64,000 nucleotides of DNA from an uncultured Gammaproteobacteria bacterium (GCA_963714975.1 CAVQQD010000001.1:128001-192000); one strand, 5' to 3'; positions 2,120 through 52,458 are shown, counted from the first letter of the stretch. Numbers and translations are program-made. Notes: generated by a model not told the origin, from the letters alone.

Positions 2120-3496
2120 ATGGATCCCAGATTCTACTTTAACAACAGGCACTTGGAAGATCCTGCGCGTTTTGCAGAATTGGATCCACAGCTGAAACGT
2201 CTGAGTCAGCAATTCTATACGTATTATTCGCCTTTATTGCAGCAATTGCCGGTCGATACGCCAGGTATTTATACCCTGAGTGGGGGGAGGCAAATTGGCA
2301 AAACCACGCTGCTCAAACAATGGATGTTAAAGCTTCTGAAAGAAGGAAAACTTCCTGAGGCATTGGCTTTTTTCTCCGGAGAGTTAATTGAAGACCACCA
2401 TGCATTATTAAACCTGCTGCAAGATCAACTGGCTACTATGCCTACCCACGGCTATCGCTATTTAATTCTTGATGAAGTCACTTACATACGCGATTGGGAT
2501 AAAGCTATTAAATATGCCGCCGATGTTGGCTTGTTTGACGATGTCATTGTAATTTTAACTGGATCTGATTTGGCGCTTATCAAAGAAGCGATGATGCGAC
2601 TGCCCGGCCGGCGGGGTAAGGCAGCAAAGGTTAATTTCCATGCCTATCCCTTGTCATTCCGTGAGACGGTAATATTGAAGCAACAGGGAAGCCCTGCGCT
2701 AGAGCAATGCCTAACCCCAGCCAACCCGACGGAAGCGGCCGTCACTATGTTATTTGCTGAATTTAACCACTATCTGCAACATGGCGGGTATTTGACAGCG
2801 ATCAATGATTTGGCCTTGCAGCACAAAATTTTGGATGCGACCTTAACGATTTATTCCGATTGGATCCGCGGCGATATGTTACGGCGGGGAAAACAGCTGC
2901 ATTATTTGCAGGAAATCATTGCCTCTATCATCAAACGTTATACCAGCCAAATAACTTGGAATGCACTCGCAAAGGATCTTTCCATTGACCATCCAGCCAC
3001 GGTTGCTGATTATATCGCCCAGTTAGAATTGATAGATGCCGTATTTGTGCAGTCTGCTTTATTAGAAGATAAATTAGCTCCGGCACCCAAAAAAGCCCGC
3101 AAGATTCTCTTTACCGACCCTTTTATTTTTCATGCCATGCGATCCTGGATCGCTCCGGTAAAAAATGCCTATGAGCAACAAATCCTGACCGCCTTAAACG
3201 ACCCGGTACTTTGCGCACAATTAGTCGAAAGTTGCGCAATTACCCAATATCGGCATTATTATCCAACTTATTATTTGAAGGCAGAAGGTGAAGTAGATAT
3301 CGCTTATGTCAAGCAAGGGCGCTTCTGGCCAATTGAAATTAAATGGACTCAACAGCTGCGAGCCAAGGACTTAAAACAAGTCTTAAAATATCCCAACAGT
3401 CGTATCTTTACCAAGAGCAAGCAAAATGGCATTTTGCAAACAATTCCAACAGAACCACTGCCATTAGCATTGTTTAATCTGCAAGCTTCTGCATAG
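2120..3496 (+). CDS. AAA_14 ATPase with DUF4143 and C-terminal PD-(D/E)XK-like domain
   Basis: Walker A GGRQIGKT, Walker B LILDEV, LTGS, GGYL, FTDPF and C-terminal EVDI...PIEIK. Confidence 0.85.
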   Translation: MDPRFYFNNRHLEDPARFAELDPQLKRLSQQFYTYYSPLLQQLPVDTPGIYTLSGGRQIGKTTLLKQWMLKLLKEGKLPEALAFFSGELIEDHHALLNLLQDQLATMPTHGYRYLILDEVTYIRDWDKAIKYAADVGLFDDVIVILTGSDLALIKEAMMRLPGRRGKAAKVNFHAYPLSFRETVILKQQGSPALEQCLTPANPTEAAVTMLFAEFNHYLQHGGYLTAINDLALQHKILDATLTIYSDWIRGDMLRRGKQLHYLQEIIASIIKRYTSQITWNALAKDLSIDHPATVADYIAQLELIDAVFVQSALLEDKLAPAPKKARKILFTDPFIFHAMRSWIAPVKNAYEQQILTALNDPVLCAQLVESCAITQYRHYYPTYYLKAEGEVDIAYVKQGRFWPIEIKWTQQLRAKDLKQVLKYPNSRIFTKSKQNGILQTIPTEPLPLALFNLQASA

Positions 3497-3583
3497 GATT
3501 TAGTTGATAAGACAACCCAAGCGCTCTAACATATGGGAAATATTACCTACTCACAGCGTGGTTAGATTCCAGAGGATAACAAA

Positions 3584-4411
3584 ATGGCCAAATCAATTTT
3601 AATTACCGGGTGCTCTACCGGAATTGGGCTTTGTGCCGCACAAAGTCTGCAACAGCGGGGGTATCAGGTAATTGCTACGGTACGCAAACCCCAGGATAAA
3701 GTTAAACTAGAAGAGCAAGGCTTAACTTGCGTGTTATTAGATCTCAACGATTCCACTTCTATTCAACAGGCCTTCGCTGAAGTTTTGTCGTTGACGCAGG
3801 GTAAATTAGCTGCCTTAATCAATAACGCCGGATTTGGGGTGATGGGAGCCGTTGAAGATTTATCACGACAAAGTTTGCGGGCGCAATTTGAAACCAATGT
3901 GTTTGGCTTGCAAGAATTGACTAATCTGGTTATTCCAGTGATGCGCCAACAACGGCAAGGGCGGATTATTAATGTGAGTTCGGTGCTAGGTTTAGTGACC
4001 TTGCCCTACCGGGGGGCTTACTGTGCCTCCAAATATGCCCTGGAATCTTTGTCCGATGCACTACGGATGGAGCTGCGTGGCATTGGTATTCATGTCATCC
4101 TCATTGAACCAGGTCCCATTGTGAGTCAATTTCGGCAATCTGCAGAGGAAGTTATCAAAGAGCATATCGACATGACGGGCAGTCGCCATCGGGCCACTTA
4201 TGGTAATTTGTTGCAACGGCAGGCGCAGCAAAAAGACTCTTCGCGCTTTACTTTAGGGCCGGAGGCCGTCGTGGCGAAAATGCTGCACGCTTTGGAAAGC
4301 CCACGGCCGAAAATGCGCTATTTTGTAACCGTCCCCACTTATTTAATAGCCAGTTTAAGACGGCTGTTGCCTGCCAGGTGTTTGGCTTGGCTGTTAGCGA
4401 GGTTTTTATAA
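3584..4411 (+). CDS. Short-chain dehydrogenase/reductase (YbbO-like)
   Basis: TGCSTGIG, NNAG and YCASK motifs. Confidence 0.93.
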   Translation: MAKSILITGCSTGIGLCAAQSLQQRGYQVIATVRKPQDKVKLEEQGLTCVLLDLNDSTSIQQAFAEVLSLTQGKLAALINNAGFGVMGAVEDLSRQSLRAQFETNVFGLQELTNLVIPVMRQQRQGRIINVSSVLGLVTLPYRGAYCASKYALESLSDALRMELRGIGIHVILIEPGPIVSQFRQSAEEVIKEHIDMTGSRHRATYGNLLQRQAQQKDSSRFTLGPEAVVAKMLHALESPRPKMRYFVTVPTYLIASLRRLLPARCLAWLLARFL

Positions 4412-47294: not shown

Positions 47295-48492
47295 ACGTGA
47301 ACTCACGAAAAAAATACTGTAGGGATGGTTAATAAAATTAAGTTAAACTATAAATAAAAAAATTCTGTGAAGGTACATAAAAATGCGAAGCACTACCTAT
47401 GTCTAGCAATAATTAAAATAATCTATTTGGATCGAAAAATATGCACTTACCCATCAACATTTCCGATTTGTTATATAGCAATGTTGTTGAATCCGATCGT
47501 ATTGAATTTAAAGCAGACTGGAATCCAGAAGCGATATTGCGCACGATATGTGCTTTCGCTAATGATTTTAATAATTTTGGCGGCGGTTATATTATTATTG
47601 GGGTTGAGGAACAAGACGGCAAACCTGCGCTACCCCCTAAAGGGATTGATCCCAGGAAAGCTGGCTTGATTCAAAAAGAATTAGTGCGAATATGCTCATT
47701 TTTAAAACCTATCTACACACCCATTCTTTCATTAGAAGACTACCAAGGTAAATTGCTGCTAGTTATATGGGTGCCGGGTGGACAAATACGGCCTTATGCT
47801 GCCCCAGCTACTTTGGGAAAGGATAAGGAATATAAATACTACATTCGCAAAGCTTCTTCCACGGTCGTAGTTAAAAATGACGAACTTAAGGAACTGTTAC
47901 AGTTAACAGCCACGGTACCGTTTGATGATCGCATCAACCATCATGTCAAATTAGAAGATTTGAAATTACCCCTGATTCAAGCATTTTTGAAGGAAGTTGG
48001 CAGTCAATTATTAGAAGAATCGCGCACTAAATCCTTAGTAGATATTTGTCGCCAAATGGCTATTGTGAATGGTGGCAATGAATATTTGAAGCCCAAGAAT
48101 GTGGGGTTATTGTTTTTTAATGATGAACCGGACAAATATTTTCCCTATGCGCAAATTGATGTCGTATTATTTTCCCGACGATGAGGGCGGTGATATTATC
48201 CAAGAAAGGATTTTTAAGGGACCATTGGATCATCAATTGCGCAGTGCATTGCGTTATATACGCGATACCTTTATTACTGAAAGAATTTTAAAAATTCCCG
48301 GCCAAGCCGAAGCAAGACGATTTTTTAATTATCCCTATGAAGCAATTGAAGAAGCTTTGGTTAACGCCGTTTATCATCGTTTATGCTAAGCTATGCATAA
48401 TCTATGGTATGTAAAGTAATTCATTATGTAAAGTACGTCAAATAAATTCATATAAATCAAAGATTATATCTTATTTAACTATACATAATATA

Positions 48493-49494
48493 TTAAATAT
48501 TTTTAGTTAACCATTGCAATAAATCTTCTTTGTTCTGTTTTGAATATTTGCTAGTAACGCCTAAAGAAACACTACTTTCTTCAAGAAATTTTCTCTTGAG
48601 TTCCGGGTTAGTTTTAGCATAAATTTCAGTTGTAGTAACAGATGCATGCCCTAAAAAATCTCGAATATATATTAAATTCACTCCTGCTTCGAGCAAATGC
48701 ATGGCTTTACTGTGCCTCATACAATGCGGGGAAACAGTCTTTTTAAAAAGATTAGGTTTCTGTTTTCTACCGATTTCTATATATTTATTTAAAACATAAT
48801 GAACCCCAGCTCTTGTTAAAGGCTTTTGTTGTTTGTTCTTAAACAAATTATCAGTTTGAATTGTAATTGCATTATCGACTATATATTTCTTAATTATATT
48901 AGCAGTGTCGTTACCAATAGGAACAACTCTAGTTTTGTTACCTTTGCCCTGTAAATATACAATTGGTTTTGAATCTAATCTGATTTGTTGTAATTTTAAG
49001 TCAAGAAGTTCTTGTACTCTAGCTCCTGTATCATACAAAATTACAAGCATTGTTAAATCCCGGTATTCTTGTTTTATTTTTTTATTTGGTAGACTAAACA
49101 AAATTTTTATTTCATTTAAGCTTAAATACGATATAGCAGATAAGGGAGTTTTCTTAAATCCAATTGATAATATGCTTGTGCAAAGATTGAAGTAAGCAGG
49201 CTCTCTATGTTGTATGTATTTGAAAAACGAATGAATAGCTCCCAACCTTTGATTTCTAGTAGCTATGGAAATTCGTTTTTCTTTTTCTAACCACAGTAAG
49301 AAATCTTCTATAGATGGTGCCGTAATATCATCAAATGATAATTTGGCACTTTTTATTTTATACTTTGTTTCAAAAAAACTGATAAATTGTACGAATGTAT
49401 CACGATACGATTTTACAGTATTAATAGATGCTCCCAAATTAGATGGCAAATATTCACTAAAAAATTTTGTAATATAGAATCCGAGGTTATTCAT
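48493..49494 (-). CDS. Tyrosine recombinase RitC-like
   Basis: TGARVQE, GKGNKTR, PHCMRHS and LGHASVTTTEIY motifs. Confidence 0.92.
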   Translation of the reverse strand: MNNLGFYITKFFSEYLPSNLGASINTVKSYRDTFVQFISFFETKYKIKSAKLSFDDITAPSIEDFLLWLEKEKRISIATRNQRLGAIHSFFKYIQHREPAYFNLCTSILSIGFKKTPLSAISYLSLNEIKILFSLPNKKIKQEYRDLTMLVILYDTGARVQELLDLKLQQIRLDSKPIVYLQGKGNKTRVVPIGNDTANIIKKYIVDNAITIQTDNLFKNKQQKPLTRAGVHYVLNKYIEIGRKQKPNLFKKTVSPHCMRHSKAMHLLEAGVNLIYIRDFLGHASVTTTEIYAKTNPELKRKFLEESSVSLGVTSKYSKQNKEDLLQWLTKNI

Positions 49495-50473
49495 TATCAT
49501 GCTCCACTTTTGGAAAAACACCTTGATAAATATTATTTGTTAGAATTCTTACATTATCATAATTTTCTTCAGTAAATCTTAGATAGTACTCTGTTTCAGT
49601 AATATGTTTATGACCTAAGAATTTACTAAGCAAAGGCAATAAAGTATATGTATCATATCCACCAGAAACCATCTTTTCTAATGAGTGAACGGCGAAAGTG
49701 TGCCTTAGGTCATGTATTCTAGGATATTTATGTCTACAATTATTTTTTTTAGGTATTTGTGCTAAAGCTAAAGTTCTATGATACAAAATTTTAAATGTGC
49801 CATATGGAACTTGTGTCCCATTTGTTGTTCTAAAAAAATATTCTGCATTTATAGGGCATGTATAATTTAAATGATATTCTATAAGTTTTTTTCTTAAAGA
49901 ATCAGATGCAACAATTAATCTATTTTCATGGTTTTTGCTGTTAAGTATTTGCATTGCCCCGGTAGTAAAATTTATATTTTGTAATTTTATATTTAGCAAT
50001 TCAGATATTCTCAGACCACAAGTGTATAAAGTAGCAAGCATGATTACAAATGTTGGTGTATCCACATGTGTTAAGTTATCAATTTTATCTGCAACTCTGA
50101 AAATATTTGTAATTTCATCACACGAAAAAATATATGGAACAAAATTTGATTTCCACATTCTATTATTAATAGGTGTAGGCGAAAAAATATTATCATATCC
50201 AATTGATGTTAAATATTTTGCAAGTGTTGTAAATGCCGAACAGCGTTTACCCTGATTTGTATGAGTCTCATTACCTCTTTTAGCTATCCATAAGTCATAC
50301 ATTTCTCGTGTCATTTCTATCTTGTTATAGCCATATTTAGATAAAAAAGTATCAAGTTCTTTAAATCTTAAAACTGTTGGCTTTTGATAATCATATCCTA
50401 AACTTCTTCGATAATTTATGAAGTTTGGTAATATATCTTTGAATGGTCCAATAAATTCTGGAATTTTATACAT
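49487..50473 (-). CDS. Tyrosine recombinase RitB-like
   Basis: CGLRISE, IHDLRHTFAV and LGHKHITETEYYL motifs. Confidence 0.92.
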   Translation of the reverse strand: MYKIPEFIGPFKDILPNFINYRRSLGYDYQKPTVLRFKELDTFLSKYGYNKIEMTREMYDLWIAKRGNETHTNQGKRCSAFTTLAKYLTSIGYDNIFSPTPINNRMWKSNFVPYIFSCDEITNIFRVADKIDNLTHVDTPTFVIMLATLYTCGLRISELLNIKLQNINFTTGAMQILNSKNHENRLIVASDSLRKKLIEYHLNYTCPINAEYFFRTTNGTQVPYGTFKILYHRTLALAQIPKKNNCRHKYPRIHDLRHTFAVHSLEKMVSGGYDTYTLLPLLSKFLGHKHITETEYYLRFTEENYDNVRILTNNIYQGVFPKVEHDNE

Positions 50474-51683
50474 TTGGCACTTCCAAAGATAAATTCTTAA
50501 GATTTTTTTCATCAATGGTTAAATATATCTCTGTAGCCCTGGTGTTTGCATGACCTAGTACACTCGAAATTGCACTAATCGGCACGTTGTTGCTCATTAA
50601 ATTAGTTGCTAGGCTATGCCTTAATGCGTGCGGTCCATGATGTCTAGTTGAATAGTCAATCTCGGCTTTATCCATGTATTTATTAACGATTCTCTGAAAA
50701 CTACTAATAACCAGCTTATTAAAAGGAGCATATGTTGAGATAAAAACATAGTCTTCATCTGATGACTTAGGACGTCTTTCATTTTTCAGATAATCAATTA
50801 ATGGAATTTTAATATTATCAAGAAAGGGTAAAGTTAATAAGCTATTAGTTTTTAATTGGGTAACATTAATTGTATTATTATTCCAGTCTAAGCTATTAAA
50901 TTTTAGATTAGCTACATCACTCACTCTCAGCCCTAAATATACTAATATTGATAACACCGCTAAATCACGTTTTCCATGTGTAGAGTCTAAATGAATACTA
51001 TCTAAAAGCCTTTGTATTTCTTCCTTTGAAAAATATGATAGTATTTGTGTATCAGGAGCCTTTCTGACAGTTGGAAAAGCTTGCTTTCCTGTAAAGTTAA
51101 TTAATTTTTCAGAATGCAACCACTCAAGAGTTTCTCTTAATACAGTAACGATTACATGCTTTGTAGCACGAGCATATTTATCTAATGAATTTATATATGT
51201 GTGAGCAGTATCTACTTCTATAGTAGTTATATCATTTATTCCAATATTATTTAGATACATGAGAAATTCAGACATTACCCATAATTTTCTCTTTTTACTT
51301 TTTAAAATTATGTTTTTAGAATTAATAAAATCACGAAATTTAAGGTAAAAATCCTTGAATTGTGAGGGTGTATCAATAGTTTTTTCTTTTTGATGCATTT
51401 TACAAAATGTACCAGTCAGATAAAATTCATAAAGAATCAAAACCGGTCTTCGTAAAACTGTTTGCACAGAAGAAGATGGATTATAATAATCAACATCGTA
51501 CTTTTCTCTTAAAAATTCAGCCATTATTGGAACTGTGACTGTTGTAATACATTTTTCTGTACAATATTTTTTAAAATGATTTATTATCCATATAGTGTTA
51601 GATACTACTTCTTTGCTGTATCCATCATTTTTCATCTTTTGTAACAAACCGGTCATTAGGTTTTCAATATTTTTTGTATCCAT
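50466..51683 (-). CDS. Tyrosine recombinase RitA-like
   Basis: LGLRVSDV, GPHALRHSLA and LGHANTRATEIY motifs. Confidence 0.92.
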   Translation of the reverse strand: MDTKNIENLMTGLLQKMKNDGYSKEVVSNTIWIINHFKKYCTEKCITTVTVPIMAEFLREKYDVDYYNPSSSVQTVLRRPVLILYEFYLTGTFCKMHQKEKTIDTPSQFKDFYLKFRDFINSKNIILKSKKRKLWVMSEFLMYLNNIGINDITTIEVDTAHTYINSLDKYARATKHVIVTVLRETLEWLHSEKLINFTGKQAFPTVRKAPDTQILSYFSKEEIQRLLDSIHLDSTHGKRDLAVLSILVYLGLRVSDVANLKFNSLDWNNNTINVTQLKTNSLLTLPFLDNIKIPLIDYLKNERRPKSSDEDYVFISTYAPFNKLVISSFQRIVNKYMDKAEIDYSTRHHGPHALRHSLATNLMSNNVPISAISSVLGHANTRATEIYLTIDEKNLKNLSLEVPNV

Positions 51684-52458
51684 AGGACTTCTCCCATTTC
51701 AATTTGAATACATAAATATTATATCATCTTTAATATGCGAAGTTGTAAACGATAGGATCCTTGATTTATATGAGTTTATTTGACGTACTTTACATAATGA
51801 ATTACTTTACATACCATCGCGGCTATGATATCAGAGAGCCCATAGAGGTACGCATCAACCGACAATGCATCCGTGTTTTAAGCTTCCCAGGAGCTGACCC
51901 ATCTATTCCCCAAAAAGAAGTTGATGCCGGGCGTTTATTGACCCGGCGATATCGTAACCGGCGTATTGGTGAATTTCTAAAAGAACTAGATTTTACGGAA
52001 GGGCGTGGCACTGGTATCCCAAAAATAAGACGTATTCTAACTATCAATGGCTCGCCAGGGCCGCTTTTCATCACAGATGAAGCTCGGACCTCTTTTTATA
52101 CTGAAATCAAGATACATCCTGAGTTTTTAGAAGAACCTCAACTAGAGAAATCAGATGGGGTATATCATGGGGTATATGATCCTAGGGAACTCAATCTATC
52201 ACAAACAGAATTAAAAATTTTAAGCCTGGTTCAGAACGCCCCTATTGGGTTAGCAAATATTTTAGAAACTTTTGGATATAAAGTCATCACAAGAAATATC
52301 AGGACTGCGTTAACTAAGCTATTAAAATTAGAGCTCATTGCTTATACTATTCCTGACAAACCCAGAAGCAACAAGCAACGATATAAAATTACTGCGTTGG
52401 GAAAAACTATAACGACTGAACCAAAGCCAGGAATGCTGTAGGTTATTTCAAACGAGCT

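Follow-up and report, generated by a model that had tools for sequence, protein, structure and literature searches.

An intact RIT (recombinase-in-trio) element of 3.4 kb, with three intact tyrosine recombinase genes and terminal inverted repeats, was found in the window (the whole 64,000-nucleotide stretch of DNA analysed), where it splits a gene of the Schlafen AlbA_2/HATPase_c_4 type. The 20 bp palindrome that adjoins one repeat is borne by the element and is probably a back-to-back pair of recombinase motifs making two adjacent 6 bp crossover sites, of which the CATCGY site would have been used here. Each half of the palindrome is a copy of a motif of about 10 bp, predicted to bind recombinase, that is also present twice in each terminal inverted repeat. 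Together, the junctions of the window and of its relatives provide a specific, testable mechanism for a family whose movement has never been worked out.

The element and the interrupted gene

The genes ritA, ritB and ritC are adjacent on the minus strand and overlap by short stretches (Table 1), as is the gene order of RIT elements. Of the R-H-R-Y type catalytic motif, an HxxR box and a C-terminal LGH...Y were located in all three proteins by pattern search. In searches against NCBIfam the top matches of the three proteins were the XerC, XerD and XerA models, all far below their cut-offs; for RitC the XerD and XerC models scored best. Homology to the archetypes (Cupriavidus CH34/pHG1) was established by comparison of RitA with the first gene of the annotated three-integrase trio of Cupriavidus necator pHG1 (27% identity over 98% of the length, E = 2e-30). 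About 215 residues of RitA precede the catalytic domain, which is compatible with two core-binding domains. The available text of PMC8138268 reports two core-binding domains in RitA and an extra C-terminal helix in RitC, and groups the Rit proteins with Xer among the simple tyrosine recombinases.

The terminal inverted repeats are 87 nt each and 86% complementary. At each repeat tip a 10 bp motif is present twice, as direct copies 17 bp apart, the ritA side mirroring the ritC side. From outer motif to outer motif the element measures 3408 nt, compared with 3451-3544 nt in its relatives, which corresponds to the RIT unit of about 3.5 kb, and the palindrome is situated beside one of the two inverted repeats, as in other RIT elements. 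It is an ordinary, intact new member of the known RIT family, and the first-pass annotation had already identified it as a RIT. A search of its own genome yielded no further copy of the element (single copy), and a DNA search of 60 relatives returned weak matches to it only.

Table 1. Coordinates of the element, its junctions and the interrupted gene in the window
Feature	Position	Strand	Remarks
Target gene, 5' part	47441..48380	+	Pfam SLFN_AlbA_2, E 1e-14; ends ...EEALVNAVYHR
Left predicted crossover word, CATCGT	48375..48380	+	Target His-Arg codons; adjoins the palindrome
Palindrome, TTATGCTAAG/CTATGCATAA	48381..48400	.	20 bp; two inverted copies of the repeat-tip motif; element-borne
Second 6 bp spacer, TCTATG	48401..48406	+	Reads CATAGA on the opposite strand, His-Arg as well; separates the palindrome from the ritC-side tip
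ritC-side terminal inverted repeat	48404..48490	+	87 nt; outer motif GTATGTAAAG 48407-48416, inner motif TTATGTAAAG 48424-48433
ritC	48493..49521	-	342-aa tyrosine recombinase; Pfam Phage_integrase 3.7e-31 and SAM-like N domain
ritB	49487..50515	-	342-aa tyrosine recombinase; Pfam Phage_integrase 1.3e-16
ritA	50466..51683	-	405-aa tyrosine recombinase with long N-terminal part; Pfam Phage_integrase 3.1e-32, residues 218-392
ritA-side terminal inverted repeat	51731..51817	+	Inner motif CTTTACATAA 51788-51797, outer motif CTTTACATAC 51805-51814
Right predicted crossover word, CATCGC	51815..51820	+	GCGATG on the other strand; joins the palindrome to the ritA-side repeat in L009
Target gene, 3' part (GYDIREPIEVRIN...)	51821..52441	+	Pfam HATPase_c_4 and Fic-like_C; aligns to L056 residues 315-517

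Two uninterrupted homologues of the target gene were found among 100 relatives (L056, TATCATCGTAGCTATGAA; L057, TATCATCGCTCCTACGAG). Both read ...NAIYHRSYE..., with one codon between R and Y, and both lack the 26 bp insert that is present at the left junction of the window. The homologues thus bear out the empty site as reconstructed in the first-pass annotation, and the 26 bp do not belong to the target; their presence in an uninterrupted homologue had been named there as the finding that would overturn the proposal.

The 5' part of the target gene contains one frameshift near 48093-48172, where L056 aligned by tblastn in two frames. The Schlafen/HATPase_c_4 gene is consequently broken twice, by the insertion and by the frameshift (or an assembly error).

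Two more RIT-type ends with the same layout were observed in the genome of the window, at C3:619290-620296 (L075) and C2:364706-364751 (L073), with palindromes reading TTATGTGGAG/CTCCACATAA or GTATGTGGAG/CTCCACATAA. The former adjoins a decayed ritC-like gene with eight stop codons; near the latter no ritC was found.

Junctions and predicted crossover sites

The left junction consists of TATCAT (48372-48377), 26 bp (48378-48403) that begin with CG, end with CT and enclose TTATGC-N8-GCATAA, and ATGGTA (48404-48409). The right junction (51812-51830) reads TACCAT-CGCGGCT-ATGATA. All of these sequences had been given in the first-pass annotation and were verified. Arranged by motif on the plus strand, the left junction is GCCGTTTAT-CATCGT-palindrome-TCTATG-GTATGTAAAG... 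and the right junction is ...CTTTACATAC-CATCGC-GGCTATGATA.

The word CATCGY is present once in the empty homologues and twice in the window, where it is flush with the palindrome on the left and with the repeat-tip motif on the right. Such a duplication is the ordinary signature of a 6 bp tyrosine-recombinase overlap (arm, 6 bp overlap, arm), and exact 6 bp duplications flush with the motif edges are compatible with recombinase cleavage at the arm/overlap boundaries. As in Xer/dif-type sites, in which inverted arms surround a shared overlap of 6-8 bp, the arms are inverted around an overlap, which was exactly 6 bp at 26 of the 26 RIT ends found by the pattern described below.

The joined (probably circular) form would consist of the ritC-side repeat, CATAGA, the palindrome, (A/G)CGATG and the ritA-side repeat. 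In it each half of the palindrome would face a tip across exactly 6 bp, giving a junction with two adjacent Xer-type core sites. The element would have entered the target gene through the site that links the palindrome with the ritA-side tip, by strand exchange within CATCGY, the His-Arg codons of the conserved NAxYHR; the word would have been left at both positions listed in Table 1, and the palindrome would have come to lie towards the 5' end of the gene. The palindrome would be placed beside ritA if the second site were used or if the segment between the tips were inverted. The motifs are presumably bound by the Rit proteins, which would cleave at the spacer edges, and a circle presumably exists. 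The full joined pattern gave no match in 72 records (424,434 nt), and neither the joined or circular form nor an empty site was found in the contigs of four public runs, an absence that says little because contigs were searched.

Layout in other RIT loci

A search with RitC gave 24 loci, of which 18 were assessable; six (L015, L016, L024, L025, L030 and L031) were excluded by contig ends. A 20 bp palindrome exactly 6 bp from a repeat tip was found in 17 of the 18 assessable loci, 16 by an exact-geometry pattern (inner motif, 7 bp, outer motif, 6 bp, palindrome) and one (L011) by eye. The pattern gave 27 matches in 581,732 nt, 26 at RIT ends and one that was a shifted re-hit of the same L023 end. 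Taken alone, the palindrome is unremarkable in 64 kb: at one mismatch or fewer there was one match against 0.48 expected, and 39 of 100 shuffled sequences contained at least one. It is its position, exactly 6 bp from the repeat tip, and the recurrence of this layout in the 17 loci that mark it as non-random.

The exception, L010 (2856-7122), is an 85% identical relative of the window element in which both ends are visible and the palindrome is at neither. It demonstrates that a palindrome-less copy can exist, and it counts against the model. In L010, ritA is also separated from the ritA-side repeat by some 0.9 kb of additional DNA, in which two short ORFs (2971-3348 and 3311-3712) run on the minus strand.

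Twelve loci had the palindrome on the ritC side and six had it on the ritA side; in one locus (L012) it was present at both ends. Both sides occur for one and the same element: L013 (ritA) and L014 (ritC) differ in this way, and of five identical copies in a family-mate genome (G002), three (L045, L048 and L049) have the palindrome on the ritC side and two (L046 and L047) on the ritA side. The pHG1 trio has the same 6-20-6 layout, TAGCGC-(AAATGTGCTG/CAGCACATTT)-GCGCTA-tip...tip-TAGCGC.

In the pHG1 trio (L076, 51.2-54.9 kb) the inner motif and the palindrome halves are similar to one another, but the outer tip motif (TTACCGGCCG) differs from both. This difference hints that different Rit proteins may read different motifs; the dissimilarity of the outer motif to the palindrome halves counts against the model.

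L012, which is the whole of a 4102-nt contig, has the palindrome and identical flanks at both ends, with terminal inverted repeats of 258 nt. Its double ends may be due either to insertion into a symmetric site or to an assembly effect.

Attachment of the palindrome to either tip

In another genome a 99% identical copy of the window element (L009) was found in a homologous gene. Its junction reads ...GTTTAT-CACCGT-(TTATGCATAG/CTTAGCATAA)-GCGATG-GTATGTAAAG, with the palindrome joined to the ritA-side tip, and the linking word GCGATG (equal to CATCGC) is identical to the word at the right junction of the window. From the window (ritC side) and L009 (ritA side) together, the joined form can be written as ritC tip, CATAGA, palindrome, GCGATG, ritA tip. 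The ritC end of L009 is deleted, and a search of that genome did not find it elsewhere. The second-spacer sequence varies between copies, TCTATG in the window being replaced by GCGATG, TTGATG or ACGATG.

A ritA-side tip followed by CATCAA, the palindrome and TTTATG was read from public run X2, in which the palindrome is flipped with respect to L009. An orientation of the palindrome fixed relative to the element had fitted the window and L009 and is contradicted by X2. The flip counts against the model and suggests that inversion between the tips may also occur. One could then suppose that the palindrome is an accessory or inversion site, that there is one integration site and that the ritA-side position arises only after in-place inversion between the tips. 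The X2 orientation is that expected from such an inversion, and the spacers of the window favour inversion over deletion (GCGATG and the reverse complement of CATAGA agree at 4 of 6 positions). The orientation in L009, by contrast, is that expected from integration through a second site, and an in-place inversion itself needs a crossover in the spacer between palindrome and tip, so that the palindrome would still have a crossover site on each side. We consider an exclusively accessory role extremely improbable and retain the reading with two crossover sites.

Further copies were compared. In public run X3 the tip directly abuts another HATPase_c_4-type reading frame (CAT GCC AAT TAT GAA...). 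In metagenome loci L058 and L059 (88-92% relative) the order is tip, CATCGT, palindrome, followed by the reverse complement of gene ends reading ...NALCHK and ...NAMCHR, respectively; the tip in L059 is the ritC-side one. In L060 a ritA-side tip is followed by CAT GCT GAT TAT.... Three loci only were found in metagenome contigs with the exact 20-nt repeat tip. The palindrome lay against the 5' part of the target motif in five of five cases (window, L009, L058, L059 and X2), with the element in both orientations. Two pseudo-symmetric sites would predict this, provided that each spacer, followed from tip to palindrome, reads CAT-NNN.

Public runs X1-X4, from four studies (peat, aquatic, soil and one unlabelled), contained contig pieces that match 48200-52000 of the window at 90-99%. 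Of 22 public runs listed, these four served as evidence; the remaining ones mostly contributed small shares. The flanks differ in at least two of these runs, which places close relatives at other sites in other communities.

Palindrome halves and the possibility of folding

The palindrome halves matched the tip motifs of their own element at 8.31 of 10 positions, against 7.59 of 10 across elements, a score in which three of the 10 positions are fixed by the search pattern; 2 of 20,000 permutations reached the observed value. This half-site match supports the fallback suggestion of the first-pass annotation that the palindrome may be a recombinase-binding site.

The principal suggestion made there was that the palindrome is situated inside the crossover core and is extruded as a hairpin (cruciform or single-stranded), restoring a short CG...CT core with 2 bp of homology on each side. 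Palindromic character is indeed retained in every one of the 16 element types (7 to 10 of 10 positions complementary), and Nielsen et al. (2017; PMC5737581), in the available text, found no circles and speculated on hairpin intermediates. The near absence of homology between the junction words of L022 (see below) would also be accommodated. The halves are, however, imperfectly complementary (7-9 of 10) in 11 of the 16 types and yet match the tip direct repeats, which are not palindromic. Because the 10 bp motif is also present as direct repeats, pairing cannot explain it. The predicted hairpin, a 6 bp stem with an 8-nt loop, is weak: folded as single-stranded DNA it gives -3.6 and -4.8 kcal/mol, and within a 61-nt context z is -0.24. 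In attC-like sites a stable stem is found and pairing is conserved rather than sequence; here the stem is weak and the halves track the tip motif.

The edges of the supposed core do not bear out the hairpin either. CG is part of the 6 bp word CATCGT/CATCGC, found at both junctions and once in the empty sites, and is accounted for by the CATCGY duplication. CT belongs to the second spacer TCTATG, which is changed in other copies of the same element; in L009 the same 26 bp position ends in CG, so that the resemblance to the target does not recur. The sequences that look like target words are the flanking 6 bp, not 2 bp. When the junctions of homologous RITs were compared, as had been recommended, the palindrome was found to travel with the element, in line with the first-pass annotation, and the edges that resemble target words measured 6 bp instead of the 2 bp anticipated. 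The invariant 6 bp spacing on both sides is a prediction of a protein-bound core site. The hairpin was rejected on the weak fold and the unconserved CG...CT edges, and we regard it as very improbable. Most likely, the palindrome comprises the two shared inner arms of two adjacent core sites, an arrangement in which nothing would require folding.

Duplicated 6 bp words

The two junction words of an insertion agreed at a mean of 4.56 of 6 positions over 16 independent insertions, against about 1.5 of 6 expected by chance. Three loci were omitted from this set: L012 because the palindrome is present at both ends, L021 because its contig stops at the tip, and L029 because it represents the same insertion as L028. 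The words were identical (6/6) in five insertions (L014, L019, L048, L049 and L050); those of pHG1 were also 6/6 alike (TAGCGC) and those of L011 5/6. In L022 they were 1/6 alike (AGTTTA and GCAATC), so homology between junction words is not always present, and this mismatch counts against the model. The two L022 words are plausible codon pairs of one protein motif; heterology may be tolerated or may reflect later exchange between copies.

Empty and occupied sites could be compared in three cases: the window, a nested RIT in L009 and genome G002. The palindrome is missing from the empty sites in these three element families, and the possibility that it is target sequence was rejected. The nested RIT duplicates exactly AAGGCA, at the tip junction and again beyond its palindrome; the intact ritB of the window has a single AAGGCA (GACCT-AAGGCA-CACTTT), which locates the empty site within about 49691-49732. 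In G002 four uninterrupted targets read GACTAATGAC-CCCGCC-CTGGGGTG, and L049 has CCCGCC at both junctions.

The nested element (L009, 2377-5816) is a second, unrelated RIT inside ritB of the window-type copy, with minus-strand ORFs of 413, 306 and 331 aa, motifs of the TTATGCCGAT type and its own palindrome, TTATGCCGCG/CGCGGCATAA.

L045 and L046 have two unlike words, one of them known to be native. In both loci, native CCCGCC is at the tip junction and foreign TCCACC is beside the palindrome. A target-derived word beside the palindrome in every case, which had been considered, is contradicted by these two loci. Their pattern would follow if, at the same sites, one strand were exchanged at the repeat-side spacer edge and replication completed the event (copy-out, in the style of SEs and Tn554), the palindrome-side word being a footprint of the previous site; a 6 bp fingerprint and footprint is described for SEs and Tn554 in the available text of PMC10214605. 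The pattern fits replication of a heteroduplex overlap after double-strand exchange equally well, which would give the same outcome half the time, and L013 may show the opposite arrangement. With two informative events the choice is not decided by the loci themselves; we consider the copy-out route unlikely and keep the two adjacent crossover sites as the preferred reading, with which either kind of exchange could be combined.

In the window family, CAT CGT, CAT CGC and CAT AGA each specify the His-Arg of the NAxxHR motif, and in G002 GGC GGG and GGT GGA each specify the Gly-Gly of the TPQGG motif of a putative reverse transcriptase. The 6 bp words look like a record of earlier targets. Tentatively, and with more doubt than confidence, the reading might be extended to a site with two doors: a shared palindrome between two adjacent 6 bp crossover sites, the words of which take on the codons of the target motif whenever the element moves, possibly by one-strand exchange on the repeat side. 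If this were true, the element would record its past targets and, whichever way round it inserted, could pair with differently spelled codons for one conserved protein motif.

Relation to known systems

RIT elements have been known since 2009 and are widespread. They are reportedly also the subject of work by Van Houdt in 2009 and by Ricker in 2013. They share with the window element three adjacent, overlapping tyrosine recombinase genes within about 3.5 kb, ends formed by inverted repeats, and a palindrome next to one of these ends. The available text of Van Houdt (2012; PMC3414803) reports only that a 28-9 bp inverted repeat with an overlapping palindrome flanks ritA and ritC, and states that these do not fit the usual core and arm sites. 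In the loci analysed here, by comparison, the palindrome may adjoin either end, its distance from the tip is always 6 bp, and the crossover word is readable. No proposed RIT crossover site was found in a full-text literature search, the coverage of which did not extend to Ricker et al. (2013). RIT transposition has never been reproduced in the laboratory, according to the available text of PMC10214605.

The sites resemble Xer/dif in having inverted arms of about 10-11 bp around a 6 bp overlap, and the Rit proteins score best against Xer models. The arm ends of the RIT sites may also resemble those of dif. Unlike Xer/dif elements, a RIT encodes three recombinases itself, its two predicted sites lie in tandem around a common central palindrome, and its targets are coding motifs in many different genes, not a single chromosomal site. 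At integron attC sites a tyrosine recombinase acts on a folded strand and the junction is resolved by replication; in contrast, the stem in the window is short and weak and its half-sites match a motif that is also found as direct repeats. The coupling sequences of Tn916-type elements are 6 bp junction words that move on with the element to its next site and may differ from the target. In most RIT insertions, unlike Tn916, 4 to 6 of 6 positions are identical, which suggests a preference for homology. Strand-biased circularizing elements (SEs), GInts and Tn554 are similar by layout, with several tyrosine-recombinase-type proteins, inverted-repeat ends, a 6 bp spacer in the joined site and a 6 bp word carried from site to site (PMC10214605). 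They differ in that the available text of that paper describes no palindrome between the ends, and RITs are without the fourth small protein.

From the palindrome a definite map of the site follows: motif, 7 bp, motif, 6 bp, palindrome, 6 bp, motif, 7 bp, motif. The map names the predicted crossover words and the predicted junction sequence, and would explain the entry of RITs into conserved coding motifs in both orientations. From a minimal donor, a 30 bp target and the three genes, a direct transposition assay could be assembled. The map also suggests that RITs preferentially enter genes of other mobile elements and defence-like genes.

Target motifs

Clades of RITs were seen in translations, by eye, to be situated in conserved coding motifs. 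HATPase_c_4-type NAxxH(R/N) is the target in L011, L021, L022 and L058-L060, and the G002 copies (L045-L049) are in a TPQGG motif, presumably of a group II intron reverse transcriptase. An ENAIRPxALGRKN motif, which we take to be that of an IS66-type transposase, is interrupted in L013 and L014. A GKIERF motif, presumably of an rve-type transposase, is interrupted in L017, L019 and L032, and a VDDxGxIHV motif in L020, L023, L027 and L028.
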